A DNA stretch of 31,171 nt from Thermoanaerobaculia bacterium (lineage in GTDB: Bacteria > Acidobacteriota > Thermoanaerobaculia > Gp7-AA8): contig JBDSGC010000230.1 in assembly GCA_039919215.1 (NCBI GenBank), forward strand, positions 1-31,171. The letters are read 5' to 3'. This document shows, in pieces, positions 1,645-23,075 of the stretch; within the stretch, counting starts at the first letter, position 1; every line of letters begins with the position of its first letter. The translations under genes were made by a program, and so were the position numbers. Below the pieces are notes generated by a model. It did not search any database and was not told the origin of the DNA. It worked only from the letters and a program-made list of their open reading frames with translations.

Positions 1645-1650
1645 AGTTTA
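1645..1650 (-). promoter_or_regulatory. Candidate -10 box (TAAACT) 8 nt before the ferredoxin ATG
   Basis: ggTAAACTgagagtccATG. The box includes the TAA stop of the upstream gene, so it may be coincidental. Confidence 0.3.
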
Positions 1651-2985
1651 CCTTACGGCCGCGACGAGGGCGCGGCCATTCACGAACAGCGGTTTGACAA
1701 TTCGAGAGCGCTGGATCGTTGCAAGTTCCGGCGCCTGGCGCTCACCAATCCAGATGAACGCGCCATCGGGCAGCGGACTTCCCTCGGCGTCGTGCGGATC
1801 GGTTCGCCAGCCTGGATGCAGGGCCTGGCTCGCTGGATAGGCGATGGCCGGACGCAGGGCAACTGTCTCCAGGTAAAGGTACCCGGTGGCGACGACCGGG
1901 GTGGCCGGCGGGACGTGCCTCCCCACAAACTGCGCCGCCTGGCGATAGTCGTCTGGAGGGCGCGAAGCGTGATCGACCGCAGCCAGATCGATGGAAACCA
2001 GCCCGATGGCGATGGTGATCGAAGTGAGAGTCATCTTCCAGACTCTCGGCCATCGGTCGAGACAGGCCGCCAGAAGCAGAACGAGCGGCGGAGCGATGAC
2101 AGACTCGAAGCGCATCGGGAAATAGATCCGCCGGCCGGCCAGACCGGCCAGGAGCGCGCAGGCATACGGAGCGCCCACGGTCCATGCGGCGAACAGAGCA
2201 ATCTTTCGATCGCAGCGAATCAACGTCAGGGCAGCAACGAAGGCAGCGAGTGCGGCGAGCCACAGCGGAGCAGGCTTGAACAGCGACGGGGGAGAGTCGA
2301 ACGGGGCGAACAGGATGTCGGCGAACGAAGGTTTCCACTCCCCCATCCATCCCGTGGCCTGAACTGGTTGGTGCCGTGCGAGCCAGAGCAGGGGAATGAT
2401 TGCGGCGAGCGACGCGGCGAGGGCACGCGCCCCTTTTCGTCCGCGCAGGAGCAAGGACGGGAGAAAGAGCAGCCCGTAGTAATGACTGCAGGCGGCGGCG
2501 ACGATCGCCGCCGCTGCCAGCCATGGCTTTTCGCAAACAAGGGCGATCATCGCCAGGGTCACCAGCAGCGCGCAGAGCGCATAGGCTCGCGCGTCCGTGG
2601 CGAAGAGGGCCGCTGGCGGGTAAGCCGCGAGCAGCGCAGCGGCCAGGAATCGCGCCGGCCCCAGCCGCCGGCAACTGAGGATTGCTGCGAACGACCCCAG
2701 AGCACAGGCCAGGGAGACCAGCCGGGTGGCGAAGAGCGCCGGGTTGCCGAGCAGGTGAATGATCGCGTAATAAAGGGGAGGGCCGGAATCGGCGCGCAAC
2801 AGCCCGACCATGGTCGCCGGCGGGTGCGCAGCAAGCCAGTGCGTGAACAGCTCGTCGAAGAAGAATTCGCGGGTGACCAGCAGCGCGATGCGGGGGGCGA
2901 GAAAAAGGAGAGTCAGGGCAACGGAAACCGCGGCCACGCCCCGGCGCGAAGCGAGGAGGTCGCCCTCGTCGCGCAGCACGCTCAC
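1648..2985 (-). CDS. Polytopic membrane glycosyltransferase, GT-C fold (GT39/PMT/ArnT-like), 445 aa
   Basis: Many hydrophobic helices, FFFDELFT acidic motif after TM1, DSGPPLYY, DARAYAL and SHYY motifs. The start overlaps the cheY stop (GTGA). Confidence 0.7.
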   Translation of the reverse strand: MSVLRDEGDLLASRRGVAAVSVALTLLFLAPRIALLVTREFFFDELFTHWLAAHPPATMVGLLRADSGPPLYYAIIHLLGNPALFATRLVSLACALGSFAAILSCRRLGPARFLAAALLAAYPPAALFATDARAYALCALLVTLAMIALVCEKPWLAAAAIVAAACSHYYGLLFLPSLLLRGRKGARALAASLAAIIPLLWLARHQPVQATGWMGEWKPSFADILFAPFDSPPSLFKPAPLWLAALAAFVAALTLIRCDRKIALFAAWTVGAPYACALLAGLAGRRIYFPMRFESVIAPPLVLLLAACLDRWPRVWKMTLTSITIAIGLVSIDLAAVDHASRPPDDYRQAAQFVGRHVPPATPVVATGYLYLETVALRPAIAYPASQALHPGWRTDPHDAEGSPLPDGAFIWIGERQAPELATIQRSRIVKPLFVNGRALVAAVR

Positions 2986-3365
2986 ACCGTCAGCAGTTCG
3001 GAGATGGTCTTGATCAGGTGCGAGGACTGGATCGGCTTGGAGATGTAGGCATTGGCACCGAGGGCCAGCCCGCGCTCACGATCCTCTTCCGCACCCTCCG
3101 TGGTGATGATGATGATGGGGATGGCCTTGAGCTGTGCATTCTGGCGGACCAGGGAGACCAGCTTCAGCCCATCCATGACCGGCATATTGATGTCGGTCAG
3201 GATCAGATCGATGTGCTCCGGACCGGACAGCTTCTTCAGCGCGTCGACTCCGTCCACGGCCTCGATGATCCTGGCGTTCTTGAATCGCTTCAAGGAGAAC
3301 GAGATCAACTGGCGCATGGTCGGAGAGTCTTCGACGACCAGGAAAATTGCGTTTTCCAATCCCAC
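2982..3365 (-). CDS. cheY: CheY-like single-domain response regulator, 127 aa
   Basis: Intact receiver: VVEDS, ILTDINMPVMDG (phospho-Asp), ITT, ISKP. Confidence 0.92.
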   Translation of the reverse strand: MGLENAIFLVVEDSPTMRQLISFSLKRFKNARIIEAVDGVDALKKLSGPEHIDLILTDINMPVMDGLKLVSLVRQNAQLKAIPIIIITTEGAEEDRERGLALGANAYISKPIQSSHLIKTISELLTV

Positions 3366-3375
3366 TATCCGCCCC

Positions 3376-4185
3376 TCACGATGTGGTGGTCAGCAGATCC
3401 AGAAAGCTCTGGATCGTGTTGAGCTTCCTCTCTGACTGCGAATACAGCTTCGAAGCGAAAATCGCCGTGGCGGCGTGGGCAGCCAGCAGCGAAAACAATT
3501 CATAGTCCACAGCGGAGAACGAGTCCTTCTGCTGGAGCAGCTTGTAAATGGCGATCAGCCCGATGACGTGCTCTTTGATTTTCAGCGGAATGGCAGCCAG
3601 AGGTCTGTCGATGGTGACCTTGCCGCCGTCGACATCCTGATTGATGTAGTAGCTCTCGCCGGTCTTGGCCACCGTGCCGATGACGCCTTCGCCCAGGCGG
3701 CTGGAGAGCTGCTCGATCCCCGGCATGACGTCCTCGCCCTCGAAGGCGATGGACTTCAGCTCGTTGGTCTTTTCGTCGAGCAGCAGAATGGCGAAGGACT
3801 CCGCGCCCACCAGGTTGATCACGATCTCCTGGACGATCTGGATGACCTCCCGGAAGTCCATGGTGGAGTGCAACTGGTAACTGGCAACGTAGAGATTGGC
3901 CAGATTGTTGTTCTGGTCTTCGATCTCCACGTACCGGGAGGCGAAGTCCTTGTTCTCTTCTTCCACGGCCCGGAACTTCCGGGCAATGCGCCGGTTTTCC
4001 TCGGTCAGCTGGGACACTTCATCGCGCAACCGCTGGACCTCTTCGCCCGATCCCGTACCCGATTCGGCATCGATCGCAGCGACGCGGTACCGCAGCCTCT
4101 GGTTCTCCCGAAGAAGTTCTTCGGTGAACTCTTTTCCCTTGTTGAACAGCTCCAGAAATTTCTCTGCGCGTTGCTCTTCGCTCAT
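3376..4185 (-). CDS. Coiled-coil + GAF domain protein with no output domain, 269 aa
   Basis: Heptad-rich N-terminus (EELLRENQRLRY...EVQRLRDEVSQLTEENRRI), then a GAF signature (LHSTMDFREVIQIVQEIV...LGEGVIGTVAKTG...AIPLKIKEHVIGLIAIY...ELFSLLAAHAATAI). Confidence 0.85.
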   Translation of the reverse strand: MSEEQRAEKFLELFNKGKEFTEELLRENQRLRYRVAAIDAESGTGSGEEVQRLRDEVSQLTEENRRIARKFRAVEEENKDFASRYVEIEDQNNNLANLYVASYQLHSTMDFREVIQIVQEIVINLVGAESFAILLLDEKTNELKSIAFEGEDVMPGIEQLSSRLGEGVIGTVAKTGESYYINQDVDGGKVTIDRPLAAIPLKIKEHVIGLIAIYKLLQQKDSFSAVDYELFSLLAAHAATAIFASKLYSQSERKLNTIQSFLDLLTTTS

Positions 4186-4288
4186 CAGGATCTCTCAGAC
4201 TCGGCCCGCGTGGACTGTAGCATAAGGTGGCCGTGCCTCGAGGCCGGTCCCGCCTCGTTGGCCGCGAGGCTCTGATCCCTGGCCGCGG

Positions 4289-5329
4289 TCATCCCTGACA
4301 CAACCGATGGATCGCTGCCGGAATCTCACCGAGGGGGAGCACCTGCTCGACGGCGCCCGTCTTGATGGCCTCGTTGGGCATCCCGAAGATGATCGCGGTC
4401 TCCGCAGATTCCGCGATGGTCCGCCCACCGCGGTCCCGCAGCTGGCGGATGGAAGCGGCACCGTCATCGCCCATGCCGGTCAGGATGACGGCGATCAGTT
4501 TGTCTGCGCAGACTTCGCTGGCGCTTTGCAGCAGACGATCGACGGACGGGGCGTAGAGGTCGTTTGCACTGGCCGGCAACACCGCGATGCGGAGGCCTGC
4601 GGACCCACGCCGGATCTCCGTCTGCATTCCGCCCGGTGCCACGTAGACGACCCCGTTCTCGATGCTCTCGCCATCCATCGCTTCCTTCACCTGATACTGC
4701 GAGAGCCGGTTGACGCGCTCGGCAAAGAGCCGGGTGAAAGCCGGCGGCATGTGCTGCGCCACAACCATGGGGATGGGCAGCAGTGGCAGGGTCTGGAAGA
4801 GGAGCTGCAGAGCGGGCGGCCCTCCGGTGGAGCAACCGATGACGATCAACTCGATTCCGCCCTGACATCCCACCGCATCCACGGGCTTCAACACTTCCCC
4901 AACCTCATCGTTGACGATGCTGCGCTGCAGGTTGTCCATGCGCAGTTGGGCAACCTGAAGCACCTTGGCGATGAGATCTTTGCGGATCTCCTCCAGCCGA
5001 GGCGAAACGCGGCCGCCCGGTTTCTGGATGAAATCGAAGGCGCCGAGCTCCAGCGCCTTGAACACACTGCGGTCGCTGGCCTTCGACGATACGGCGATGA
5101 CCGGCGTGGGCCGATCGTGCATCAGCCACCGCAGGAAGGCGAAACCGTCCATGACCGGCATCTCCAGATCGAGGGTGATGACGTCGGGCCGGTGCTTGAC
5201 CACCTGCTTGATGGCGTCCTCACCGTGGACCGCCGTGGCCACCACGCGGATCTCCGGATGCGACTCCAGCATGCGCGAGATGGTCACGCGGTTGTAGGCC
5301 GAGTCATCCACCACCAGGGCGCGGATCAT
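4289..5329 (-). CDS. cheB: Chemotaxis response-regulator methylesterase CheB, 346 aa
   Basis: Receiver (VVDDS, TLDLEMP, QKP) plus methylesterase triad motifs GCSTGG, QHMP and GMGDDG. Confidence 0.96.
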   Translation of the reverse strand: MIRALVVDDSAYNRVTISRMLESHPEIRVVATAVHGEDAIKQVVKHRPDVITLDLEMPVMDGFAFLRWLMHDRPTPVIAVSSKASDRSVFKALELGAFDFIQKPGGRVSPRLEEIRKDLIAKVLQVAQLRMDNLQRSIVNDEVGEVLKPVDAVGCQGGIELIVIGCSTGGPPALQLLFQTLPLLPIPMVVAQHMPPAFTRLFAERVNRLSQYQVKEAMDGESIENGVVYVAPGGMQTEIRRGSAGLRIAVLPASANDLYAPSVDRLLQSASEVCADKLIAVILTGMGDDGAASIRQLRDRGGRTIAESAETAIIFGMPNEAIKTGAVEQVLPLGEIPAAIHRLCQG

Positions 5330-5384
5330 GCCGCGCCTGCTGCACCGTGGGCCGGCAGTGTCCGAGCTGCGTGCGCCGGGAACG

Positions 5385-6236
5385 TCACCGCTGGTACACC
5401 ATGTCGTTCTTCAGGTGACGCAGCTTGAACTGCGTGGACAGGGAGATCAGAGACTCGGAGTGCCCGAGCAGCAGATACCCTCCGTCGACCAGTCGGTTGT
5501 AGAAATTGGTCACCACCACCCGCTTGGAGGTGTCGTCGAAGTAGATGATCACGTTGCGGCAGAAGATCACGTCGAGGTGGCCCAGGAGCGACACCCGCGA
5601 CTGGTCGTAGAGATTGAGGCGCCCGAAGGACACACGGTTGCGCACGTCGTCGTGAAGGTGCCACGACCCGTCCGGCTGGCGGCTGAAGTACTTGTCCCGG
5701 AGGTTGGGGTCGGTGGCCCGGAAGGCGGTCTCCCGGTAGTGTCCGCGCCGGGCCTTGGAGAGCACCTGCTGGCTGATGTCACTGGCGAAAATCTCGAACG
5801 ATGCATGCTCGTAGTAGCCGGCCTCCTGCAGCAGCATGGCCAGTGAGTACGGCTCTTCTCCCGAGGAGCAGCCGGCCGACCAGATGCGGATCCGCTTGAC
5901 GGTCTTGCGCGACAGAATGTCCGGGATGACTTCCTCCACGAAGGCGGTGAGTTGCGCCGGCTCGCGGAAAAAGTACGTCTCGTTCGTGGTCACCATGTCG
6001 TAGATCTGGTCGAACTCGGCGTCCGCACGCGGGTCGTACTGGAGGAAGTAGAAGTATTTCTGGAAGGAGTCGAAGTTCAGCTCGCGCGCTCGAGGAGAGA
6101 GCCGCTTCTGCAACAGGTACTTGGAGGAGTCCGCGAACCACATGCCGGTACGCACATAAATCTGATCGCGCAACTGCCTGAAGACGTCATCAGGGAGTTC
6201 GAGGTGATGGTTGAGCGAGAGGCTGAACGTGGACAT
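5385..6236 (-). CDS. cheR: Protein-glutamate methyltransferase CheR, 283 aa
   Basis: TTNETYFFRE, IWSAGCSSGEEPYS, ASDIS, DVIFCRNVIIYFD, LLGHSES. Confidence 0.96.
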   Translation of the reverse strand: MSTFSLSLNHHLELPDDVFRQLRDQIYVRTGMWFADSSKYLLQKRLSPRARELNFDSFQKYFYFLQYDPRADAEFDQIYDMVTTNETYFFREPAQLTAFVEEVIPDILSRKTVKRIRIWSAGCSSGEEPYSLAMLLQEAGYYEHASFEIFASDISQQVLSKARRGHYRETAFRATDPNLRDKYFSRQPDGSWHLHDDVRNRVSFGRLNLYDQSRVSLLGHLDVIFCRNVIIYFDDTSKRVVVTNFYNRLVDGGYLLLGHSESLISLSTQFKLRHLKNDMVYQR

Positions 6237-6302
6237 GGCGGGCTGTCTGGGCGCGAGAGAAGGGGGCGGCCGGCATGGGGCCGCCGGCTCAATGACCTTC
6301 GG

Positions 6303-8525
6303 TCAACTCTTCTCCTTCATCGCCTGCAGAATCGCCGCAATCACCACCTCACGACGGCTGTCGGCGGTCCGCCACGCTTCCTCGAGCAGGTCCCGGAACA
6401 GCTGCTTGTGATGCACGAAGACATCGGACACCTCGTCGAGCACGGCGGCGTTCTCCAGGGCCTTGAACAGGACCGGAAACGAGGAGCGATCGGGGAGCTT
6501 GTCCAGAGCCAGCACAGCCGACTGCTGGACGTAGGTATCAGGGTCCTCCACCGCCCGATGGAGCGCGGGCAAGGCCACCGGATCGCCGCGCAGTCCCACC
6601 GACGCAGCCGCCGCAGCGCGGATCCGCCAGTCGTTGTCGTTGAGGGCGAACATCAGGTAATCGAAGACCTCATCGCCGGGGATCCGGGAGAGCGCCAGGA
6701 TGGCCGCGCGGCGAATCTCCAGGTCGGCGTCGTAAGCCGCGCGGAAGAGCACATCCTTGACCCGCTCGTCTTCCGATCTTCCCAGCGCCTCCAGCGCGGC
6801 GATCCGCACCGGCGGAAGGTCATGCTCCAGGTGGCGGATCAGCGGCTCCACCGCCTCGAGATGGCGGTACGCGCCCAGCGACTGCGCCGCGGCGGTGCGG
6901 ATCCAGATGTCGTGGTCCTCCAGAGAACTGATCAGCGGTTCGATTCCTTTCTCTGGGCGCAGTCGCACGATCGCGTTGATGGCTGCCAGCCTCACGCCGG
7001 TGGACTCATCGGCTAAAGAGAGGACAAGCTGGTCGGCGAAGCGTTCCTCACCAAATTTCCCCATCAGGGAGATCGCCTTCTGCCGGATGACCGGATCGCT
7101 GTCCTTCGACGCCAGCAGCAGTTCATCGTGATACCCCTCTCCCTGGATGTTCACGAAGACCGACAGGGAGTTGAGCTTCATGGGCACCGACGTCACCTGC
7201 AGCATCTTGCGGATCCTGGCCAGGACCTCCTGCTTCATCTCCGGATAGGCCGCCACCAGCGCGGAGATCGAGTTCACCGCGGCCTGCTGCGAAGCCACGT
7301 CGGAGTCGTCGAGTTTGGCCAGCAGGTAGTCGATGGACCGCGGATCGCTGATCTGTCCCAGGGTCTCGATGACCAGGCGGCGGATCATGGCCTGCTCGTG
7401 ATCGAGGAACGGAAGGATGTGCGGGATGGTCTCCGCTCCACCGATCACATTGATGATGCGGAGGAGCAGAGCCACGATCTCGTCTTCCCCGGAGTTGCGC
7501 AGGGTCTCCTCGATGACCGGCAGCGATCCCGGTCCGAAATCGATCAGGGCCTGAGCAGCGGTCTCCGCCGTGTCCGGCTGTTCGAGGTAATTGATCAGAA
7601 CAGGCAGCGCGCGCGGGTCGGCGGACCACCCGAGAAACTTGAGGATGAAGCTCCGGACGTCCCGCTTGGAAGTGCTGCGCAGATGGTCGATGAGCGGTTC
7701 CAGTTTCTCGCGGGGGAACGACTCGCGAAACTTGCGCTGCACCAGAAGACGCTCGGCCTGCTCGACAATCTTCGGCTTGTTGGCCTCGGCAATGCGCACC
7801 AGTGCGCGCAACGCCGTCAGATTGAGCTTCTCCTCTTCGGCGATGACCTTGAGCAGAAACGACACCGTCCCCACGTCCCCGATCTTGCCGACTGCCTCCA
7901 GAACCGGTTTGCGCATCGACTTCTCGGAGTAGAACGGAAGGATCGACGGCAACGCCGAGCGGTCACCGATCTCTCCCAGCGCTTCCACCACGTGAAATTT
8001 GAGCCAGAGGTCGTCCCGCTCCAGCAGCGCGATCAGGGGCGCAAGCGAAGAGGCATCGCGGTATTTGCCCAGGGAGGACACTGCAGACGAGGCGATGTTG
8101 ACGTCCTGTTCCGATGCGGCGATCTGCAGCAGAAGGCGGAAACCATCCTGATTCCTCAAATCGCCCAGCAGGTTCACCAGCGAGAGGCGGACGTCCGGAT
8201 CAGACTCGGTGCGTAGACGCTGCACGATCGGAGCGATGCCGGCCACCCCGATGCGGATCAGCGCCTCGGTGGCCGAGTTTCGCTTTCCCGCATTCTCCGG
8301 GTCGGCCAGCGAGTCCAGCAGCCCGAGGATCACTTCCTCCTGCGGGTCGCGGACGAAGCCGTCGACGATGGTCTTGCGTACACGCCAGTCCTTGTCGCCG
8401 AGCAACTCGAACATCAGCGGCAGATCCCGCTGTTCCGTCCCATGGGCCACGAGATACGCGGCCTTCTGACGGGCGTCCGGGTCAGCCGAACGGGCCTGTT
8501 CCACCAGTTGAGGATCTGCGTTCAT
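6303..8525 (-). CDS. Large cytoplasmic HEAT-repeat protein, about 740 aa
   Basis: Continuous HEAT/PBS repeats (DKDWRVRKTIV, DLWLKFHVVEALGEIGD, DIWIRTAAAQSLG, DWRIRAAAAASVG). Start moved from the track's 8624 to ATG 8525 (MNADPQL) because the extension is not repeat-like. Confidence 0.85.
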   Translation of the reverse strand: MNADPQLVEQARSADPDARQKAAYLVAHGTEQRDLPLMFELLGDKDWRVRKTIVDGFVRDPQEEVILGLLDSLADPENAGKRNSATEALIRIGVAGIAPIVQRLRTESDPDVRLSLVNLLGDLRNQDGFRLLLQIAASEQDVNIASSAVSSLGKYRDASSLAPLIALLERDDLWLKFHVVEALGEIGDRSALPSILPFYSEKSMRKPVLEAVGKIGDVGTVSFLLKVIAEEEKLNLTALRALVRIAEANKPKIVEQAERLLVQRKFRESFPREKLEPLIDHLRSTSKRDVRSFILKFLGWSADPRALPVLINYLEQPDTAETAAQALIDFGPGSLPVIEETLRNSGEDEIVALLLRIINVIGGAETIPHILPFLDHEQAMIRRLVIETLGQISDPRSIDYLLAKLDDSDVASQQAAVNSISALVAAYPEMKQEVLARIRKMLQVTSVPMKLNSLSVFVNIQGEGYHDELLLASKDSDPVIRQKAISLMGKFGEERFADQLVLSLADESTGVRLAAINAIVRLRPEKGIEPLISSLEDHDIWIRTAAAQSLGAYRHLEAVEPLIRHLEHDLPPVRIAALEALGRSEDERVKDVLFRAAYDADLEIRRAAILALSRIPGDEVFDYLMFALNDNDWRIRAAAAASVGLRGDPVALPALHRAVEDPDTYVQQSAVLALDKLPDRSSFPVLFKALENAAVLDEVSDVFVHHKQLFRDLLEEAWRTADSRREVVIAAILQAMKEKS

Positions 8526-8670
8526 GGCGTGCCGACCAGTGGGCTTCGGCGCGGTGGCAGCGCCGTTCGAGCCCTTGTCGCATTCGAAGGCAGGCCGCGC
8601 TGAGTTGCACCACCACGGGCACACGACGCGTTCTTCGCTCGCAGCGGCGAGAGGGTGCGGGGCTGCACGT

Positions 8671-9534
8671 TCATCGGGTGGCCGTCCTCAACCGGGCCAT
8701 CTCTTCGCGTTTCATCTGCACAAACTGCTGGATCGTCTCGCTGAAGATCTCTGTGTCCCGGCGCACCCGCATGGGAACGCGGGAGTCGTAATACTGGCGA
8801 CCCTCTTCGATCTCATCGCGAAGAATTTCGAAAAAACTGTTGTCCCGGATCCCCTGCTCCACTTTGGACGGGTGATAGATCACGATGTCGCTGAGGATGA
8901 GACGGGCCAGACGCCGGGCCTCATCCCACTCGCGGGACTCCACGGGAATCTCCTCCCCGGAACCGAGGTCCGGAAAGAGTTTGTGGATGATCTGCTGGAA
9001 CTCCTGCTCCGGAATCTGCTCCTCGATGTACTCGTCTGCGCCATAGAGATTGGTCGGATTGGCCCGGAAGCGGTTGGCCCGAAACAGTGCCCCGATGAGA
9101 ATGACCCGCACGTGGGTCTGGGCGGAATCGGCCTTGATCTCCTCGGAGACTTCCACGCCCAGCTTGCCCTTCAAATACACGTTCACGATGACCAGGTCGG
9201 TCCTGGTGTTCTGCACGAATTCGAGGGCCGGGTCACCAGTCTCGAAAAGTGTGACGTCAAAACCGCTGGAGCGCAGGTGATCGGCCAGAAAGGTGCGAAA
9301 CGGTCGCGGCTCATCGGCGATCACGGCGACGCGCCGTTTCGGTCCCGCAGCACCCGGGGGCACCGCCAGAGGGCGCGCCGGCACGGGGGCAGCGCCTGCC
9401 GGAGGGGCGGCCGCCGCAGGTTTCAGCACCATCGGGTTGCGGCAGGCAGGGCAAGCGACGCGGACGGGCTGGGTCAGCGGCAGCGCGATGGCAGCACGAA
9501 AACGGGCGTGACAGGATCGACAGGTCAGTTCCAT
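8671..9534 (-). CDS. Zinc-ribbon + pseudo-receiver + RomX-like C-terminal domain protein, 287 aa
   Basis: CRSC...CPAC; Pro/Ala linker; receiver fold with LVIVN at the phospho-Asp site; C-terminus EARRLARLILSDIVIY...GIRDNSFFEILRDEIEEGRQYYDSRV resembles Myxococcus RomX as I recall it. Confidence 0.75.
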   Translation of the reverse strand: MELTCRSCHARFRAAIALPLTQPVRVACPACRNPMVLKPAAAAPPAGAAPVPARPLAVPPGAAGPKRRVAVIADEPRPFRTFLADHLRSSGFDVTLFETGDPALEFVQNTRTDLVIVNVYLKGKLGVEVSEEIKADSAQTHVRVILIGALFRANRFRANPTNLYGADEYIEEQIPEQEFQQIIHKLFPDLGSGEEIPVESREWDEARRLARLILSDIVIYHPSKVEQGIRDNSFFEILRDEIEEGRQYYDSRVPMRVRRDTEIFSETIQQFVQMKREEMARLRTATR

Positions 9535-9537
9535 GGG

Positions 9538-10263
9538 TCAGGCCAGTAGCTTGTCCAAATCAAGAAGAATCGTCAATGCAGCAGCTTGACGAAAGATGCC
9601 GCGAATTGGCTCCCGCTCTTCGCTGGCGTGCACCACCGGCTGGGGCTGGATCTCCGACGCCTCCACTTTGACTACGCGCAGAACACGGTCGACCTCGAAG
9701 CCGAGCGTTTCACTCCCTCTCCCGACCACGATGATACGGGAGTCGGGTCCGGAGCCGGCGGATGGATGCCCGAGGCGGGCCCGTGCGTCCATGATGGTGA
9801 CGATGGTGCCGCGGAGGGAGATGATGCCCCGCACAGATCGTTCCGCGTTGGGGACCCGTGTCACGTCGCGGATCGGAATGATTTCCACGACGCGCTCGAT
9901 GCCGGCGGCGTAGTGCTCCCCGGCGATGGCGAAGGTCAGGACTTCGATGAGGTGGCCCTCTTCGCTGAGCGCGACCTGATGGACCAGCCCCTCCCGCCGT
10001 TTTCCGGCGATCTCCTTGAACCGTTCCAGTTTCGACGGGCCAGCGGGAAAGGCCTCCACTGCCGGCGGCGGGCTTCCTGCGTTCTTGAGCGGCTGGGCGG
10101 CGATCGACGAGTGCGGGAGGAGGACCGGCGGGAGCGGTGACGCCGGTTGCCCGACCGGCGCTTCGGTGCCCACGGCTTCCGGGGAGGTGTCCGGCTGGCG
10201 AGACGCCTCTACCCGGGCTTCCTGCTCTTTCGCTTTTTTGCGGAGCTTGACCAGATCAACCAT
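9538..10263 (-). CDS. cheW: CheW adaptor with about 100-aa N-terminal extension, 241 aa
   Basis: VLTFAIAGEHYA, VVEII, TRVPNAERSVRGIISLRGTIVTIMD, GFEVDRVLRV, ILLDLDKL. The start overlaps the ATPase stop (ATGGTTGA). Confidence 0.92.
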   Translation of the reverse strand: MVDLVKLRKKAKEQEARVEASRQPDTSPEAVGTEAPVGQPASPLPPVLLPHSSIAAQPLKNAGSPPPAVEAFPAGPSKLERFKEIAGKRREGLVHQVALSEEGHLIEVLTFAIAGEHYAAGIERVVEIIPIRDVTRVPNAERSVRGIISLRGTIVTIMDARARLGHPSAGSGPDSRIIVVGRGSETLGFEVDRVLRVVKVEASEIQPQPVVHASEEREPIRGIFRQAAALTILLDLDKLLA

Positions 10264-11116
10264 TCGGCTGGCCCTCTCGCAGCGGCGCGCGCGGCCCGGA
10301 TGGATCGGCGACTCGCTTCCTCAGCCGGTGCTCGCGCGCAGCCGCTTCAATCCGAGTCCGGTCAATCCGGGTCTCGTCGTCGCCGAATGCTTCGAGCAGA
10401 GCTGTCGTGGCCAGGGTATTGATCAATCGAGGGATGCCTCCGCTGATCTCGTGCAGTGCACGAACGGCGTCGTCATCGAAGGGATTCCGAGTGCCTCCGG
10501 CAACGGCGATGCGATGGGCCACGTAGGAAGCCACCTCCTCCTCCGAAAGCGGTCCCAGACGATAGCGGAATCCGATGCGCTGTCGCAGCGGCGCGTAGGG
10601 AGCGCGATCGAGCTTCGTTTCCAGCTCCGGCTGGCCGATCAGGAGCACCGACAGAAGATTCTGGTCGTCGAGTTGAAAGTTCGTCAGCAGTCGGATCTCA
10701 TCGAAGGTGGCCTTTCCCGGGATGAGCTGCGCTTCGTCGATGATCAGCACCGGCTCGCGCTTCTGCTCGAACAGCTCGAACAGCCGGGTGTGGATCTGGT
10801 CGAGAAGGTCGTTGCGGAATCGCGCCGGAGTCAACCCCAGCCCGGAAGCGATGGATCGCAGTAGCTGCGCCGGCGTCAGACGCGGGTTGATGAGCAGAAT
10901 GATCGGACGGGTGTCGGCGACGCGATCGATGAGGGCGCGCGAGATGGTGGTCTTCCCCGAGCCGATGTCCCCCACCAGCAGAGCGAGGTCCTTCTCCTCC
11001 ACTGCATACTCCAGCCGGGCCAGCGCCTCGCGATGCTGGTCTGATTCGAACAGGAACGCCGGGTCGGGCGTCTTTCCGAACGGCTTGCTGCGAAGACCAA
11101 AGAATGTTTCGAACAT
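10256..11116 (-). CDS. ExeA/GspA-family AAA ATPase, about 286 aa, with no peptidoglycan-binding extension
   Basis: FFGLRSKPFGKTPDP N-motif, Walker A GDIGSGKT, Walker B LIIDEAQ, LIGQPEL, SGGIPRLIN. Start placed at ATG 11116. Confidence 0.88.
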   Translation of the reverse strand: MFETFFGLRSKPFGKTPDPAFLFESDQHREALARLEYAVEEKDLALLVGDIGSGKTTISRALIDRVADTRPIILLINPRLTPAQLLRSIASGLGLTPARFRNDLLDQIHTRLFELFEQKREPVLIIDEAQLIPGKATFDEIRLLTNFQLDDQNLLSVLLIGQPELETKLDRAPYAPLRQRIGFRYRLGPLSEEEVASYVAHRIAVAGGTRNPFDDDAVRALHEISGGIPRLINTLATTALLEAFGDDETRIDRTRIEAAAREHRLRKRVADPSGPRAPLREGQPNG

Positions 11117-11266
11117 GCACCGGGGAGCGTCGCTCCGTCCTTGTCGTCGTGATTTGTGAGTGGACCGATCGTCTTTCTCCACAGCCGGAGAGTCCGGCCA
11201 GGAGATCAGGGACCACAGGTTACCGGAACCCCTGCGGTTCGCGATCCTCGCGCTCCAGAGGGTCGA

Positions 11267-13318
11267 CTACCCGACCACCTGCGCGCGCGATTCCCTCGCC
11301 CGTCCTCCGTAGGCCTCGATCAGCGTCCCCACATCGATGACCAGCACGATCTCTCCCTCTCCCACCTCGGTGGCGCCGGCGATCCCGGGGATCACATTCA
11401 ATCGTTCCCCGATCGCCTTGATCACCACCTCCTGCTGGCGTACCAGCCCATCCACGAGAATTCCGGCCACTTTCTCACCAGAACGGGTGACCACCACGAA
11501 CCACTTGGTGTCGGGCGTCTCTTCGCCTGCAGGCAGATTGAAGGCGTCCGCCAGGCGCAGCAGCGGAAGGGTGAAATCGCGGAGGGTGCTGACCTCCCGG
11601 CGCTCCACGGTCCGGATGTCCCGGGAGTAAATCCGCAGAGACTCCTCGACGGAAGTCAGCGGAATGGCGAACTGCTCCTGCCCTGCCCGCACGATCAACG
11701 CCTGGATGATGGCCAGGGTGATGGGAAGCATGATGCGGAAGGTGGTTCCTTTCCCGACGACGGAGAGGATCTCGATCGTCCCTTTGAGCTCCTGCAGGTT
11801 CTTCTTCACCACGTCCAGGCCGACGCCGCGGCCGGAGATCTCGCTCACCGCCGCGGCAGTGGAGAACCCCGCACCGAACAGCAATTCGTAGGCCCTCGCC
11901 GCATCGACGGTCTCCTCTGCTGAAATCACACCCCGGGCAATCGCTTCCTTGCGCACCACCGCCGGATCGATGCCCCCCCCGTCATCGGTCACGTCGATGA
12001 CCACCGAGTTCCCCTGCTGGTACGCGTTCAGGGTGATCCTTCCCAGCGCCGGCTTGCCTGCGGACTGGCGCTGATCGGGCGTCTCGATCCCGTGATCGAG
12101 GGCGTTGCGGATGATGTGCATGAGCGGATCGGTGAGCTCCTCGACCATGACTTTGTCCAGTTCCGTATCTTCCCCGCGGAGAACCAGCTCGATGGGCTTG
12201 TTCAGGTCCCGCGCGAGCTTGCGCACCGTCCGGGAGAGCTTGGCGTAGATCTGTCCGACCGGAACCATCCGCGTTTCGATCACCGACTTCTGCAACTCGT
12301 TGAGCTTGCGATCGAGATTGCGCGCGATCTTGTTCAGCTCATGGGCCACCAGTCGTGCCTGCTGCTGCCCCACTCCTCTGGTCAGCGTCTCCAGCTGTGT
12401 TTTCTGGATGATCAACTCGCCGACGATGTTCATGACCGCATCGAGCTTGGCGATGTCCACCCGCACCGTCTGGGAGATCGAGCGCAGTGAAAGCTCTTCT
12501 TCCGCCACGCCCTCGGGGACGACGGCAGCGCCGGCAGTGCCCGCCTTCCCCTCGATCATGGAGCTCGGGACTGCCAGCTCCGATTTTCTCAACGAAATCA
12601 CCACTGCCTCGGGCGCCATCGCGGCAACCGCGTCACGATTGAGGATCGATCCGTACAGCAGGCGGAAGGCAATGCCTGACCCGCCGCTGCCATCGATCGC
12701 CGGAAGGGTGGAGATCACCTCCCCTCCCTCGTTCAACGAGGCCGTCAGCGCGCGCAACTTCTCATCGAAGTCGGAGAAGTCGAAACGCACCTGCACCGAA
12801 AGGATCTGTTTCCCGCCGCGCACGTTCTCCAGCAGGCGGTGCTCCTCGTACTCGGTCAGCGACTTGCGGGTCTGCTCGTCCAGCGTGAGCTCGCTGAGGG
12901 TGTCCCCCGCTTTCTGCTGCGGCTGATTGCTGATGGAGTGATGAATTCTCCGCGCCAGCGCCGAGACATCGACCAGCGCGCCTACCGACGGATCGCTGAT
13001 GGCGATGACCAGACGGTTCAGGGAGTCCACCGAGTCGTACAGGAGGTCAATCAGCCCGCGATCGATCTCCACCTTTCCCATGCGCAGCCGGTCCAGCATG
13101 TCCTCCAGGCTGTGGGAGAGCTCGGAGATCTCACTGAAACCGAGCATCCCGGCGAGCCCTTTGAGCGAGTGGACTTCCCGGAAGATTTTGTTGATCACCT
13201 CCGGCCGGACGTCTTTGCCCTGCGACTCGAACTCCACCAGGTCGCGCGACAGCGTATCGAGCAGCTCTTCGGCCTCGCTGGTGAACTCCACTCGCGCTCG
13301 ATCGTCTTCTTTGGCCAT
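11267..13318 (-). CDS. cheA: Histidine kinase CheA (HPt-P2-dimerisation-HATPase-CheW), 683 aa
   Basis: FREVHSLKGLAGMLG, VRVDIAKLDAVMNIVGELII, HIIRNALDHGIE, DDGGGID, GFSTAAAVSEISGRGVGLDVV, C-terminal CheW-like P5. Confidence 0.97.
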   Translation of the reverse strand: MAKEDDRARVEFTSEAEELLDTLSRDLVEFESQGKDVRPEVINKIFREVHSLKGLAGMLGFSEISELSHSLEDMLDRLRMGKVEIDRGLIDLLYDSVDSLNRLVIAISDPSVGALVDVSALARRIHHSISNQPQQKAGDTLSELTLDEQTRKSLTEYEEHRLLENVRGGKQILSVQVRFDFSDFDEKLRALTASLNEGGEVISTLPAIDGSGGSGIAFRLLYGSILNRDAVAAMAPEAVVISLRKSELAVPSSMIEGKAGTAGAAVVPEGVAEEELSLRSISQTVRVDIAKLDAVMNIVGELIIQKTQLETLTRGVGQQQARLVAHELNKIARNLDRKLNELQKSVIETRMVPVGQIYAKLSRTVRKLARDLNKPIELVLRGEDTELDKVMVEELTDPLMHIIRNALDHGIETPDQRQSAGKPALGRITLNAYQQGNSVVIDVTDDGGGIDPAVVRKEAIARGVISAEETVDAARAYELLFGAGFSTAAAVSEISGRGVGLDVVKKNLQELKGTIEILSVVGKGTTFRIMLPITLAIIQALIVRAGQEQFAIPLTSVEESLRIYSRDIRTVERREVSTLRDFTLPLLRLADAFNLPAGEETPDTKWFVVVTRSGEKVAGILVDGLVRQQEVVIKAIGERLNVIPGIAGATEVGEGEIVLVIDVGTLIEAYGGRARESRAQVVG

Positions 13319-13419
13319 TCGTTGAGGGGAACTGCCGGAAATGGTACAGCCGCGTCAGGGCTGCGTGCGGGAGAAAGTTGTTGGCAAAGGAGATCGCGGC
13401 ACGCCTCGGGCAACCAGCA

Positions 13420-13439
13420 CCGCCGGCCGTGCCAGCCTA
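13420..13439 (-). repeat. REP-like palindromic hairpin, copy 2
   Basis: Minus strand TAGGCTGGCACGGCCGGCGG, starting at the TAG stop of cheY 13437..13817. Confidence 0.5.
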
Positions 13440-13817
13440 GGCGACTTTCAGCAGGCGCTGCAGCTTCTCCAGGAGATCGTCGGCCTGGAACGGCTTGACC
13501 AGATACTCCTCGGCGCCCAGTGCGGCGGCGCGACGACGGTCCTCGTCGCTCGCTTCGGTCGAGATGACCATGATGGGGATGGCCTTGTAGACGGGATGAC
13601 TCTTCAGAAAGCTCACCAGTTCCAGCCCGTTGATGTCCGGCATGTTGATGTCGGTGAGGATGGCGTCGAAGCGATGGTGGGGAAGCATCTTCAGGGCCTC
13701 GAATCCGCTCGCAGCCTCCACGATGTCGAGCTCCACGGGATGATTCCCCGACTCGATGACCGTGGTCAGGTAGGCCCGCATGGAGGAGGAGTCTTCCACC
13801 ACCAGAATCTTCAACAA
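13437..13817 (-). CDS. cheY: CheY-like single-domain response regulator, about 126 aa
   Basis: KILVVEDSSSMR, ILTDINMPDING, IST, LVKPF. TTG start at 13817 (or 13814) after GGGGG; the track's longer ORF overlaps the upstream gene. Confidence 0.9.
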   Translation of the reverse strand: MLKILVVEDSSSMRAYLTTVIESGNHPVELDIVEAASGFEALKMLPHHRFDAILTDINMPDINGLELVSFLKSHPVYKAIPIMVISTEASDEDRRRAAALGAEEYLVKPFQADDLLEKLQRLLKVA

Positions 13818-13911
13818 GCAGGCACCCCCACGCAGCGCACCCTGCCCCGTCGGATCCCCAGGCAGGAAGCGGCTTTCTTCGGCATCCTGCGCTCTGCGTT
13901 CTGCATCGGAC

Positions 13912-15789
13912 TCACCGCTCTCCTGCGCCACGCTCTGCAGCCGAGGCGGCATTCCCGAAGGCATATCCAGCCTGCGAGAGGAAAATCTCCAGACCGGCCA
14001 CGCTCTCGATCGGCCCACGCTGCTCGGCGTTGTCACCATACAGGATCCCGATGGCGCGCGCCCCATTCATGATCGGAAGGGCGGTCACTTCGGTAGGCAG
14101 CAGGCCGCCCATCGCGTTGATCAGCGCGACATTCGCCGGTGTCTTGCGCATCTTCCCGCGGTGGGTCTGGCCCGACTGCGCCACGTCCTCGAGCAGGGAT
14201 GGCGCTCCGCGCGGAATGCGCATTGCGCGGACGCGGGCATCCATGTCCGGAGCGTCCACGGTCATACCGAAACCGCCGAGGCCGACGAACTCCCGCTCGC
14301 GCACCACAAAAATTGCTCCTCGGTCGAGATATCCCTCCGATAGCCTCAGAATCGTCGAAGCCACCTCGCCGACATCGTTGGGGTCTGACAACTCGTTGAT
14401 GAGCTGCTTGAGCACCCCGAAGCTTCGCTCCACCGTCTCTTTCTCCGCCTCGTCGTAAAAGCGCTTGCCCGCGGTCGGATCGAATCCTCCAGCAAACTGC
14501 TCCCACTGGCCAAACGCCCGTTCTGCAAACAGAACCAGCTCCTCCGCAAAAAGCCGCAGCTCTTCCTCGGCCAGACCGGGCTGAAGGCGCGCAGAGGATG
14601 GTTTGGTGAGGTAGAGGTCAGCGCCCTTCGCCAGCAGATCGTGCCGGCGTCGCAGATCGGCCTCCTGGTCGATCACCACCACTGGAAGCCGAGGATTTCT
14701 GCGCTTGAGCTGCACCATCACCTGCTCGGCCTGGCCTGTCATTTCCAGAAAGGTGACGAAGAAGGTGTTGGTGCGAAGCAGGTTGGCAGTCGCCGAGCGC
14801 ACGTCCTCGAGCAAACCAAACTGCTCAATTTTCACTCCCTGCTTGCCGAACGCCCGTTTCGCAGCAACCCGGATCATGGGGTTGCTCTCGAACAGCACGA
14901 CATGACGCTGCAACGCCTCCGGCGACTGGACTTCGATCAACCCGCCGGCCACCTTGAACTTGCCGGACTTCGAAGAGAGGCGGGCGGCAGGCGCGGGCTC
15001 AGCAGCGCTCTCCATCGCCACGGGCGCGGCCGTCGCGGACGGGCCAGCAAACGGCGGGGCCGGGATGGGTTCAGACGTCGGGACCGGGCCGGCTTCCGCG
15101 GCGGGGAAGGGAACGACGTTGTCGACGGGCGCTGCTTTCGCATCCGGTGCGGCGGATGGTGCGGGCTTCTCTCCCTGCGAGCCGCCGAGGGACTGACCGA
15201 GGCCCAGATTCAATGAGGCGGGCGTCGACTCCGCGGGGGCCGAGCCACGCAACAGGGCCTTGCCGATTTTCAGAGACTCTTCCAACCCGCGCAGAGGCTT
15301 GAGCTTTTCGCCATCCACCGACGCGATGATTTTCTGGGGCGACAAACCGCCTTCGCGGAAGACCGTGTCGGCGTCGTATTCAACATCGAGAGGACTGGCG
15401 CGCTCGCTGAGGATGAAATTGAATTCCCCTTCACGGCTCTGCAGAAGCGGAGTGACGACATCGATGATCCTGCTCCGGATGGCCTCCGCCAGATCTTCCT
15501 GGGAAATCAGGTTCATCTCCACGGCGGCGGTTCCATACGGGATGCCGTTCTCCTCCATCTGTCGCAGGGTGACACCGGACCCCGCCGGGATCCGGGAGTC
15601 CCGCTCCAGCCATGTCACCAGGTCGGGATACTCAGGCGAGGAAGCGTTGACGATCAGTCCCTGCCGGAACAGCACCGTGTGACGGCCACCACGATCGACG
15701 ATCTCCAGAACGCCCGTGCGGCGACTGAGGTAAACGATCTGCACAATGTCGGTGAGGGAGAGGTCTTCCAGTCGCCCCAGCAGACTCAT
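13912..15789 (-). CDS. DUF4388 + Pro/Ala linker + pseudo-receiver + GAF-like protein, about 625 aa
   Basis: MSLLGRLEDLSLTDIVQIVYLSRRTGVL is a DUF4388 signature; degenerate receiver (VVLFES...TFLEM...GADLYLTKP); GAF-like tail (LLEDVAQSGQ...ALPIMNGARAIGILYGDN). GGGGA RBS before ATG 15789. Confidence 0.8.
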   Translation of the reverse strand: MSLLGRLEDLSLTDIVQIVYLSRRTGVLEIVDRGGRHTVLFRQGLIVNASSPEYPDLVTWLERDSRIPAGSGVTLRQMEENGIPYGTAAVEMNLISQEDLAEAIRSRIIDVVTPLLQSREGEFNFILSERASPLDVEYDADTVFREGGLSPQKIIASVDGEKLKPLRGLEESLKIGKALLRGSAPAESTPASLNLGLGQSLGGSQGEKPAPSAAPDAKAAPVDNVVPFPAAEAGPVPTSEPIPAPPFAGPSATAAPVAMESAAEPAPAARLSSKSGKFKVAGGLIEVQSPEALQRHVVLFESNPMIRVAAKRAFGKQGVKIEQFGLLEDVRSATANLLRTNTFFVTFLEMTGQAEQVMVQLKRRNPRLPVVVIDQEADLRRRHDLLAKGADLYLTKPSSARLQPGLAEEELRLFAEELVLFAERAFGQWEQFAGGFDPTAGKRFYDEAEKETVERSFGVLKQLINELSDPNDVGEVASTILRLSEGYLDRGAIFVVREREFVGLGGFGMTVDAPDMDARVRAMRIPRGAPSLLEDVAQSGQTHRGKMRKTPANVALINAMGGLLPTEVTALPIMNGARAIGILYGDNAEQRGPIESVAGLEIFLSQAGYAFGNAASAAERGAGER

Positions 15790-21296: not shown

Positions 21297-23075
21297 TCAG
21301 CGACCGTTGCGCATCATTTCGGAGAATCGATGCACCAGTTGGGGATCGAACTGACTGCCCGCGGCGCGCTCGATGATGTCCATTGCCCGCTCGTGCGTCT
21401 CCGGAGGCTGGTAATTGTCCACGGCGATCATCGCTTCGTAGGCATCGCAGATCTGCACGATGCGGGCGGCCACGGGGATGTCCTCGCCGCGCAATTCGTT
21501 CGGATAACCGCGACCATCGAAGCGCTCATGGTGGGACAACACAGCGCGGGCCGTCTCCGGACCGAGGAGCGGCTCGACCAGAGCCGCGCCAACGGAGGGA
21601 TGCTCGCGCAGCATGCTCAACTCTTCGGGCGAGAGATTTCGCTTTCGATAGAGAAGGTCATAATCCAGCACGCGCATCCCGCAATCGTGGGTGATGGCCA
21701 CCACACGCGCGCATTCGGCTTCCGCGGGCGGGAGGGCCAGGAAGCGGGTGAACTCTTCGGTCCGGGTAACCACGGCGTCGGAGTGGCGGCGCAACTCGGG
21801 GAAGTGGTTGAAATCGGGCTCCAGCAACGCTTCGCCCACCCGCGCCCTCATGGCGTAGGTGGCGCTCCGCATCATGGAGTGCTCGATGGTGGACTGCAGC
21901 TGCGTATGCAGCGCCGCAAGCATCTCGTGCGCGGCACGGTCGGGATTTCCCGAAAACGCCACGGTCAGATACAGGCCCGTCATCGGTCCGGCATTCACCG
22001 GTGCGGTGAACACCTTCTGCATCTGCGCCGACGCGATCGGTGGAGCGGTGAGGCCGAACGGCTGTTGCACGCTGGTGCGTACCAGCGTCGAGGCCTCCCC
22101 TCGCTTGGCCAGCCACGCCGTGAGCTTGGCCTGTAGAAAACTCATCCCCTCATCGGTGATCGTCGAGCGAGAGACCACCTCCTGCAGTCCGCCCAGATGT
22201 CCGAACGCCGAAAACGAGGCCACCAGCGCTGTGGGGATGAGCAGAATCGTCCGGAGCATGTCCCGCACGGCGACCATCTCGACCTCGGTGATCCGTTCGG
22301 GGGGAGGGGGCGCGACGATGCGCTCCGCAACCGACCGCGCTTCCTGAATGATGGTGGCCGCGCGGGGCAGATGACTGTGGGCCGAGGGCATGGAGATCGT
22401 CGGCGCGGAGCTGGGCGGGGGGGCAACGGCGGAAGGGGGCGCCTTCGGCACCGCGATCTCCATCATCGGAGGCCACTCGGCGACCATCGGTGTGGGCGGC
22501 GGTGGGGGAGGTGCGGCAACTTTCGGTGCAGCAAGCGCCGGTGCCGCGGCGGCCGGCGGCGAGTTGTGCGGTGAGCCGGCCATCACCACCGCCCCGCCCG
22601 AAGTCGGCGTATCCGAAAGCGTGATGAACCGCTGCCCGAAAACATTCTTGTTTCCGAACAGGGCGACGATACGATCAGCGATCTTCTGTCCCTTCTGCAG
22701 ATCGTCATTCTCGAAGGGCTGCTTGTTGCCCTTGTCGCGCATGTCGACGACACCGACCAGCTGGCCGCGGAGATAGATCGGAGCGACCAGCAGCCGATCG
22801 GTCGACGCTTCGTAGAGCAATTCGGAAAACCGCGGCTCCACCGACAGTCCATTGACGAAGAATGCGGTACGTCCCCGGCCGCTCCGATCGATGACCGGAT
22901 CATTGCGATCGGCGACCGCGCGCAGCCCCCCTCGGAAGCCGAACTGCGTGACCATCTCATACCGCTCGTCGCCGTCCCAGAGGTACAGCGCCGCCTTGGT
23001 GGCGCGGATCTCCACCGCGCAGTCATAAAGGATTTCTTTCAGTTTTGACTGCAACTCCTGGATGTCTGGATGCAC
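21297..23075 (-). CDS. GAF + Pro-rich linker + HD-GYP domain protein, 592 aa
   Basis: GAF (LLVAPIYLRGQLVGVVDM); RRHS, THD, EHP, HHERFDGRGYP, ARIVQICDAY, GSQFDP. Confidence 0.88.
   Translation of the reverse strand: MHPDIQELQSKLKEILYDCAVEIRATKAALYLWDGDERYEMVTQFGFRGGLRAVADRNDPVIDRSGRGRTAFFVNGLSVEPRFSELLYEASTDRLLVAPIYLRGQLVGVVDMRDKGNKQPFENDDLQKGQKIADRIVALFGNKNVFGQRFITLSDTPTSGGAVVMAGSPHNSPPAAAAPALAAPKVAAPPPPPPTPMVAEWPPMMEIAVPKAPPSAVAPPPSSAPTISMPSAHSHLPRAATIIQEARSVAERIVAPPPPERITEVEMVAVRDMLRTILLIPTALVASFSAFGHLGGLQEVVSRSTITDEGMSFLQAKLTAWLAKRGEASTLVRTSVQQPFGLTAPPIASAQMQKVFTAPVNAGPMTGLYLTVAFSGNPDRAAHEMLAALHTQLQSTIEHSMMRSATYAMRARVGEALLEPDFNHFPELRRHSDAVVTRTEEFTRFLALPPAEAECARVVAITHDCGMRVLDYDLLYRKRNLSPEELSMLREHPSVGAALVEPLLGPETARAVLSHHERFDGRGYPNELRGEDIPVAARIVQICDAYEAMIAVDNYQPPETHERAMDIIERAAGSQFDPQLVHRFSEMMRNGR

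Follow-up and report, generated by a model that had tools for sequence, protein, structure and literature searches.

Previous studies have described a group of chemosensory clusters, the beta group, which encode CheA, CheW, CheB and CheR, contain no methyl-accepting chemotaxis protein (MCP) gene and occur in Geobacter, Anaeromyxobacter, Stigmatella, Plesiocystis and Myxococcus xanthus (Tran et al. 2008, PMC2577667). Mutants of the Geobacter sulfurreducens member, cluster 5, showed a changed extracellular matrix, a phenotype reported as preliminary (PMC2577667). The CheW GSU2220, the ATPase GSU2221, the CheA GSU2222 and a remotely encoded GAF-MCP, GSU1704, were found to be needed for electrode colonisation (Chan et al. 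2017, PMC5585712). In two-hybrid assays EsnA (GSU1704) bound both EsnB (GSU2220) and EsnC (GSU2222), and EsnD is a REC-GGDEF enzyme (PMC5585712); GSU2223 and GSU2224 were reported as a CheY and a response regulator, respectively (PMC8242959). In M. xanthus, the Che8 cluster (MXAN_4751-4759) has no Mcp8, and phylogenetic analysis assigned orphan MCPs to the cluster (PMC3945109). In the present study, we analysed an 11-gene chemosensory operon on the minus strand, positions 2982-15789, of a 31,171-nucleotide stretch of DNA from a Thermoanaerobaculia bacterium (Acidobacteriota); the whole stretch is referred to as the window. The results indicated that the operon is probably a non-flagellar chemosensory operon of the Esn/Che8 (beta-group) type with its receptors encoded elsewhere, the main one being an MCP that is linked to type IV pilus (pil) genes and accompanied by a second CheW.

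Comparison with the Esn and Che8 clusters

The 11 co-oriented genes filled positions 2982-15789, as the initial annotation of the window had placed them. Because the window has a G+C content of about 63%, the genes were called from Pfam matches and not from the length of open reading frames. In the order of transcription, they encode a PATAN protein, CheY-1, CheA, an ATPase, CheW, a RomX fusion protein, a HEAT-repeat protein, CheR, CheB, a coiled-coil GAF protein (ccGAF) and CheY-2. The Pfam matches bore out the proposed set of intact cheA, cheW, cheR and cheB genes with two cheY genes. The proposed lack of an MCP in the cluster and the window also stood, since the Pfam search gave no MCPsignal match on the window contig.

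The resemblance to Geobacter che5 and the other beta-group clusters, and to Myxococcus Che8, which the initial annotation had named, agreed with the published annotations and gene order. The order of the window matched these annotations gene for gene, which makes the genes putative orthologues. Like Esn cluster 5, the operon combines a cheA/W/R/B/Y core lacking an mcp gene with a remote receptor and a non-flagellar role. By annotation, its order of PATAN response regulator, CheY, CheA, ATPase and CheW is the same as that of GSU2224-GSU2220, and the ATPase holds the position of GSU2221 between CheA and CheW. The two systems differ in that the present host is an acidobacterium and not a delta-proteobacterium, that only one CheW lies in the cluster and the second lies with the MCP at the pil locus, and that the receptor is a transmembrane HAMP-MCP, whereas the Esn receptor is a GAF-MCP. 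The Che8 cluster likewise reads CheY-CheA-CheW...CheR-CheB-CheY; its CheW and CheR are separated by two unnamed genes, and no Mcp8 is present. The far end of the operon, CheR-CheB-...-CheY, is arranged as in MXAN_4753-4751 by annotation. Che8 differs in its pair of adjacent CheWs and in its CheA, which is longer (862 aa).

Receptors and the second CheW

The initial annotation had described the system as receptor-less. This description held for the cluster and the window but failed for the genome, as the metagenome-assembled genome (MAG) that carries the window (2.34 Mb, 376 contigs, 62% complete) encodes at least two ordinary HAMP-MCPs. One of them, of 842 aa, is complete on contig C168 and aligns nearly gaplessly to both a 44H chain (2ch7) and PcaY (6s18). 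The other is split across the ends of contigs C79 and C109, which abut inside this one MCP gene, and is followed by a 176-aa CheW. The window CheA was the sole CheA detected in the MAG. Five near-complete relatives encode 3-6 MCPs each, none near the cluster, and the window-type CheA is the sole CheA in two of them; relatives in which the window-type CheA is the only one have 2-4 MCPs. In the family of the window, CheA was present in 28/28 genomes, 15 of which have the window-type CheA alone. All 40 family genomes searched contain 2-7 MCPs (39/39 without the unpublished genome G146); by open-frame length, three size classes recur among these MCPs (about 700, 840 and 1070 aa).

The MCP-CheW pair was present in each of the five relatives examined. 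Among Thermoanaerobaculia proteins, the MCP of this pair (about 700 aa) is closest to the MCPs that lie inside the cousin clusters L088 and L090, with 38-41% identity over about 400 residues in an almost gapless alignment. This MCP carries 3-4 consensus methylation sites. The same consensus, [ASTG]2-x2-[EQ]2-x2-[ASTG]2, was found in none of the cluster proteins, including ccGAF, a weak test. Judged from these sequences, the operon is not receptor-less, and its receptors are predicted to be ordinary HAMP-MCPs encoded elsewhere, an alternative that the initial annotation had named and that the MCPs of the MAG and of all family genomes searched bear out. The remote MCPs and the MCP-linked CheW thus supply ordinary partners for CheR, CheB and CheW. 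The second CheW also explains why a single CheW was seen in the cluster where two had been expected; the apparent shortage does not extend to the genome.

Linkage of the predicted receptor to pilus motor genes

On contig C79 of the MAG, the MCP-CheW pair is a neighbour of motor genes of the type IVa pilus; the window contig itself gave no T2SSE (PilB/PilT) match. The C79 genes pilB (TIGR02538, 804 bits) and pilT (TIGR01420, 503 bits) both scored over the cut-off. A PilC/GspF-family platform protein matched the PilC models with 399-491 bits and GspF with 368 bits, all below the cut-offs, and a sensor kinase gene accompanies the pil genes. The pil genes are separated from the MCP-CheW pair by genes for an FHA protein, a GGDEF protein and a lipoprotein, and no receiver was detectable in the GGDEF protein. 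PilB (L006:3438-5156, minus strand) was observed to carry an N-terminal MshE-type motif for binding cyclic di-guanosine monophosphate (c-di-GMP; NF053729, 73 bits, cut-off 38).

In two relatives from other genera, the order MCP-CheW-pfkB-heptosyltransferase-pilB-pilT-pilC runs on a single strand. In the genus of the window, a segment of about 8 kb, between pilB and the gene that follows the heptosyltransferase gene, is inverted, and both breakpoints were accounted for. Of 39 family genomes that contain pilB, 29 (28/38 without G146) have the MCP of about 700 aa on the same contig as pilB, at a distance of 3.5-10 kb; in the remaining ten the two genes are on different contigs. These results directly supported the sequence-based assignment of the MCP of about 700 aa, with its canonical methylation sites and its position beside pilB-pilT-pilC, as the predicted main receptor.

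Conservation and distribution of the 11-gene block

The conservation of the operon was evaluated in the best 80 species-level genome loci, all from Thermoanaerobaculia MAGs. The order ribH-nusB-PATAN-CheY-CheA-ATPase-CheW-RomX fusion-HEAT-CheR-CheB-ccGAF-CheY was found in 80/80 loci, as far as the contigs reach, and none of the 80 had an MCP inserted in the cluster. Because the same order recurs in all of these related species loci, the conservation of the 11-gene block is far beyond chance. CheY-2 was the best conserved protein, with a median identity of 94%, followed by CheR and CheY-1 (both 83%), ccGAF (82%, 48 orthologues), the ATPase (76%), CheA and the HEAT protein (both 75%), CheB (70%), the RomX fusion (68%) and the PATAN protein (63%). 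These medians indicated that the accessory genes are under the same constraint as the core. The initial annotation had set ordinary MCPs, together with accessory genes not conserved with the core, against its own reading; the MCPs were found, and the accessory genes are nonetheless conserved, both in the 80 loci and in distant lineages. About one in ten of the related loci has the operon interrupted after cheR; in one of them, the insert (L060:14183-20659) carries Fic, FAD-oxidoreductase (DAO) and nuclease genes, followed by a T2SSE ATPase gene.

Distant relatives were obtained from a search of 50%-representative proteins. Two Nitrospiria loci (L091 and L092) showed the order PATAN-CheY-CheA-MerR-CheW-CheW-REC/RomX-HEAT-CheR-CheB-GAF-CheY. 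The same skeleton was found in two other lineages, L090, which has CheW-MCP-CheW-MCP, and L088, in which the ExeA-like ATPase is present and an MCP separates the PATAN gene from cheY. The CheA tree placed the window CheA among those of L088, L090 and L091 and separated it from a relative's second CheA. Thus, with carriers in Thermoanaerobaculia and Nitrospiria, the cluster type is not confined to the delta-proteobacteria of the 2008 description. Some relatives also carry a second, unrelated che cluster with its own MCP (L140, G001:C1:1688000-1703000), in the order CheY, a ccGAF-like protein (34% identity), CheA (35% identity), MCP, CheW, CheR and CheB, which shows that the pair of GAF protein and CheY recurs in another che system.

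Core signalling proteins

All genes of the operon described here and below are on the minus strand. CheA (11267..13318, 683 aa) has the domains P1-P3-P4-P5 and no P2, with Hpt, H-kinase_dim, HATPase_c and CheW matches. CheW (9538..10263) carries a Pro-rich N-terminal extension of about 100 aa, and its PF01584 match covers residues 107-240 (E 2.2e-30). CheR (5385..6236) matched CheR (E 1.1e-60) and CheR_N, and CheB (4289..5329) matched CheB_methylest (E 3.2e-59) and Response_reg. CheY-1 (13437..13817, TTG start) and CheY-2 (2982..3365) are single-domain receivers, with PF00072 E values of 9.7e-27 and 2e-26, respectively. In the alignment, CheY-1 retains the Asp, Thr/Ser and Lys residues, the CheB receiver is intact with its Asp, and all catalytic receiver residues are present in CheY-1, CheY-2 and CheB. 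The operon thus encodes three real phospho-acceptors, besides two pseudo-receivers that belong to the accessory proteins.

Accessory proteins

The first gene of the operon (13912..15789) starts with an ATG at 15789, preceded by GGGGGA, and encodes a 625-aa protein with a PATAN (DUF4388) domain (PF14332, E 7.8e-21), a disordered linker, a pseudo-receiver, a helical linker and a GAF domain; PF14332 is accompanied by a weak Response_reg match. In its AlphaFold model, the PATAN domain spans residues 1-160, the disordered region 178-292, the receiver fold 296-400 and the GAF domain 473-623. Foldseek matched the model to the REC-GAF dual-sensor kinase 6ob8 and to GAF domains, with template modelling scores of 0.65-0.73. 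In the alignment, Phe occupies the phospho-Asp column of the pseudo-receiver and Asp-Gln the Thr column. A PATAN domain of Synechocystis has been reported to bind PilB1 and PilC (bioRxiv 10.1101/2021.06.11.447907). The cyanobacterial PatA-type PATAN-REC regulators PixG and PixE of the Tax/Pil systems, in which the PATAN domain is the output part and binds PilB/PilC, likewise have an N-terminal PATAN domain followed by a receiver fold, and they are encoded first in a che-like operon adjoining a plain CheY. The window protein differs from them in its non-phosphorylatable receiver and in the addition of a GAF domain and a disordered linker of 110 aa. PATAN/DUF4388 domains are expanded in the family, with 10-15 copies per genome.

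The RomX fusion gene (8671..9534) begins 3 nt after cheW and encodes a Zn-ribbon, a pseudo-receiver and a RomX-like three-helix bundle, according to the Pfam and RomX matches. Homologues of this protein are annotated as belonging to Thermoanaerobaculia/Acidobacteriota. The C-terminal part of about 75 aa is homologous to M. xanthus RomX (PDB 8ZNA, E 1.1e-12), which confirmed the RomX-like assignment of the initial annotation. Mutagenesis has shown that R11, R14 and D19 of RomX are needed for MglA-GTP binding or nucleotide exchange (bioRxiv 10.1101/2024.02.20.581209). These residues correspond to R208, R211 and D216 of the fusion, which were invariant or nearly so in 60 diverse fusion proteins. 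The structure model (predicted local distance difference test score 89.7) showed the three-helix RomX fold. In the pseudo-receiver, Asn replaces the phospho-Asp and Glu replaces the conserved Lys in the alignment; this domain gave generic receiver matches only, none of them RomR-specific. A fold search of the AlphaFold database clusters with the fusion returned REC proteins, and an Atlas search with the RomX part returned no usable match. The prediction of a complex between residues 60-287 of the fusion and the canonical MglA of the MAG with GTP/Mg scored 0.01 and was counted neither way. The RomX-fusion architecture is not new, since Zn-finger-REC-RomX fusions were already noted in the same preprint (bioRxiv 10.1101/2024.02.20.581209).

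Compared with RomR/RomX of M. xanthus, the fusion shares the RomX homology with R11/R14/D19 kept, a receiver fold joined to the RomX part, and MglA and MglB in the genome. Here, in contrast, one fused protein replaces the separate RomX and RomR, the receiver lacks the phospho-Asp and the Lys, no RomR-type Pro-rich tail is present, the gene is embedded in a che operon, and MglA binding is only predicted. RomX-like domains also exist as repeat arrays, as five or six tandem matches were observed in the proteins P0126, P0127, P0129 and P0132 (760-990 aa). Because Phe or Asn stands at the Asp site, the receivers of the PATAN protein and the RomX fusion cannot, judging by the alignment, be phosphorylated.

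The HEAT gene (6303..8525) encodes a 740-aa solenoid of HEAT repeats of the PBS-lyase type (HEAT_2, E 1.2e-78, 9 stretches). The RomX-fusion gene invariably precedes the HEAT gene, including in L088, L090 and L091. In the Che7 cluster of M. xanthus, the HEAT protein Cpc7 binds CheY7 (PMC11514114). Both clusters thus encode a HEAT protein of the PBS-lyase type; that of Che7, however, is much shorter, and the Che7 cluster encodes an Mcp7 of its own.

The ATPase gene (10256..11116) encodes an ExeA/MshM-like AAA_22 protein (PF13401, E 2.2e-20) with the Walker A motif GSGKT and the Walker B motif IIDE. Its start Met coincides with the start of the match to TIGR03015, the XrtA/PEP-CTERM-associated ATPase, and its stop and the cheW start overlap by 8 nt. 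A sequence search found no relative of solved structure. The TIGR03015 match reached 221.5 bits against a cut-off of 324.5; by this score, the ATPase is a relative of the TIGR03015/ExeA family outside that equivalog. The ccGAF gene (3376..4185) encodes a coiled coil (DUF7491), which is rich in Glu, and a GAF domain (GAF_3/GAF_2, E 5e-15) with no output domain.

Flanking genes

The operon is flanked upstream by ribH-nusB and downstream by genes for a membrane protein, a ferredoxin and a small HEAT protein. A scan for promoters and terminators performed no better than on shuffled sequence. The downstream gene at 1648-2985 (minus strand) begins at a GTG, with an overlap of 4 nt with the cheY-2 stop. 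Its product, a polytopic membrane protein of 445 aa, matched neither Pfam nor NCBIfam, and the gene lies 3' of cheY-2 in just part of the related loci. The ferredoxin gene (1163-1636) and the gene for a membrane-anchored 286-aa HEAT protein (216-1076) come next in many relatives. At 21297-23075 (minus strand), 5.5 kb upstream of the operon, a gene encodes a GAF + HD_5/HD (HD-GYP-like) protein, a possible cyclic-dinucleotide phosphodiesterase.

MglA and other RomX-domain proteins

The MAG contains mglB-mglA, and its MglA matched M. xanthus MglA with an E value of 2e-97. A canonical MglA was present in 104 of the 121 genomes of the class sample, with or without the cluster. As MglA is nearly universal, its co-occurrence is uninformative as a test of the RomX link. 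The family genomes contain five MglA-like genes, which formed five groups in the tree, and the proteins of groups D and E end in Pro-rich tails of 110-170 aa. MglA E was found in 33/33 genomes of the families f1, f2, f4 and f8 and in 0/87 elsewhere, and MglA D in 32/33 and 0/87, respectively. The RomX fusion flanks CheA in precisely these four families. The E-value thresholds for D and E were chosen after the paralogue scores had been seen, and the four families may form one clade; the co-occurrence is thus not independent support. The class sample includes the unpublished genome G009, which was negative for D/E and positive for canonical MglA and on which no claim rests. Examples of D/E genes are G000:C229:448-1029 (L119), G017:C32 (L132:1501-2424) and G017:C3 (L118:1501-2595, P0278). 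A second RomX protein (G000:C29, L106:1304-2677, minus strand; P0276) of about 457 aa was also observed; it consists of a coiled N-terminus, a weak GAF-like region, a long Pro-rich linker and a C-terminal RomX domain that scored 45 bits to 8ZNA.

Discussion

From what is known of the family, together with the genomic data, the MCPs, the two CheWs and CheA would form a signalling complex. By the same family knowledge, CheR and CheB would adapt the MCPs, and CheA would phosphorylate CheY-1, CheY-2 and CheB. Both pseudo-receiver proteins, the HEAT protein, ccGAF and the ExeA-like ATPase are most likely adaptors or scaffolds, which would read CheY~P or small ligands and relay the signal. We tentatively suggest that the output pathway may govern type IV pilus activity or the polarity of the cell, and hence surface behaviour, because of the precedents of PATAN with PilB/PilC, RomX with MglA-GTP and Cpc7 with CheY7, and because of the position of the receptor at the pil locus. 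In this scheme, PilB/PilC would be the target of the PATAN domain, and an MglA-family GTPase that of the RomX domain. A more specific proposal, which we consider rather unlikely, is that the Esn/Che8-type cluster exerts chemosensory control over the polarity of type IV pili and does so outside the Frz paradigm known from myxobacteria. The pil-locus receptor would then signal to CheA, and CheY~P would be read by the adaptors that cannot be phosphorylated. Of these, the PATAN protein would contact PilB/PilC, and the pseudo-receiver-RomX protein would bring in or switch on a GTPase of the MglA family, which might be the D or E paralogue with the C-terminal tail.

Several points weigh against the overall interpretation of the operon and its output. 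The pilus/MglA output is guilt by association, and the protein contacts in the scheme are predictions. PATAN domains number 10-15 per genome, and MglA is nearly universal in the class regardless of the cluster. All genomes examined contain a second RomX-domain protein, whose distribution is wider than that of the cluster and includes genomes that lack any CheA; this protein could be the real MglA partner. The MAG is just 62% complete. The match to Geobacter and Myxococcus rests on published annotations and gene order and not on sequence comparison. Furthermore, the known phenotype in G. sulfurreducens is electrode colonisation with a REC-GGDEF output, and not motility (PMC5585712).

The main alternative, which is doubtful as a replacement for a pilus or polarity output and not exclusive of it, holds that the same pathway controls matrix and biofilm through a second messenger or gene expression, as in Esn, and not through pili or MglA, with the accessory proteins serving as array scaffolds or localisation factors. 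It draws on the failure of Esn mutants to colonise electrodes and on the REC-GGDEF enzyme EsnD (PMC5585712), as well as on the altered extracellular matrix of cluster 5 mutants (PMC2577667). The GGDEF gene in the neighbourhood of MCP-CheW and pil, the GAF/HD-GYP-type protein at 21297-23075 and the MshE-type c-di-GMP-binding motif of PilB are consistent with such an output. However, the neighbouring GGDEF protein has no detectable receiver, with no search aimed at REC-GGDEF partners, and this explanation leaves the RomX and PATAN modules and the pil linkage of the receptor unexplained.

It is very unlikely that the pathway works independently of receptors, with CheA run by the accessory sensors (the two GAF proteins, PATAN and HEAT) and with a non-MCP substrate of CheR/CheB such as ccGAF. 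The lack of an in-cluster MCP in 80/80 Thermoanaerobaculia loci, the two GAF domains conserved in the operon and the Glu-rich coiled coil of ccGAF would fit this explanation. In contrast, MCPs occur in every family genome, including those with the window-type CheA only, the second CheW is tied to one MCP, and the cousin clusters L088 and L090 hold MCPs inside. The methylation consensus, present at 3-4 sites in the MCPs, was found in no cluster protein, and in Geobacter a remote MCP binds the CheW and CheA of the cluster. The input through accessory proteins instead of receptors, as put forward in the initial annotation, was thus not supported, given the MCPs in 40/40 family genomes and the methylation sites that lie in MCPs only. 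An ordinary flagellar chemotaxis operon with receptors and flagellar genes on other contigs, which would account for the complete cheA/W/R/B/Y core, is hardly conceivable, given that five near-complete related genomes (5.3-6.6 Mb) gave no Flagellin_N match with control genomes positive, that CheZ, CheC and CheX are absent, and that the interleaved set of five non-canonical genes is conserved.

Known since 2008, the cluster type has one genetic phenotype, the electrode colonisation of Geobacter, and no mechanism. The operon with remote receptors, the main one of them pil-linked, that is described here adds a wider host range and a concrete hypothesis about its output. It is a fixed and strongly constrained 11-gene unit across a whole family of soil and permafrost Acidobacteriota and occurs in Nitrospiria as well. 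The receptor and second CheW beside pilB-pilT-pilC make the question of its role more testable, and so does the combination of PATAN and RomX modules with MglA/MglB in the genomes that carry them. The pil linkage and the pairing of PATAN/RomX with MglA thus lead to a concrete hypothesis for the five accessory proteins, namely that they may serve pilus or polarity control, which could be tested in Geobacter or Myxococcus too.

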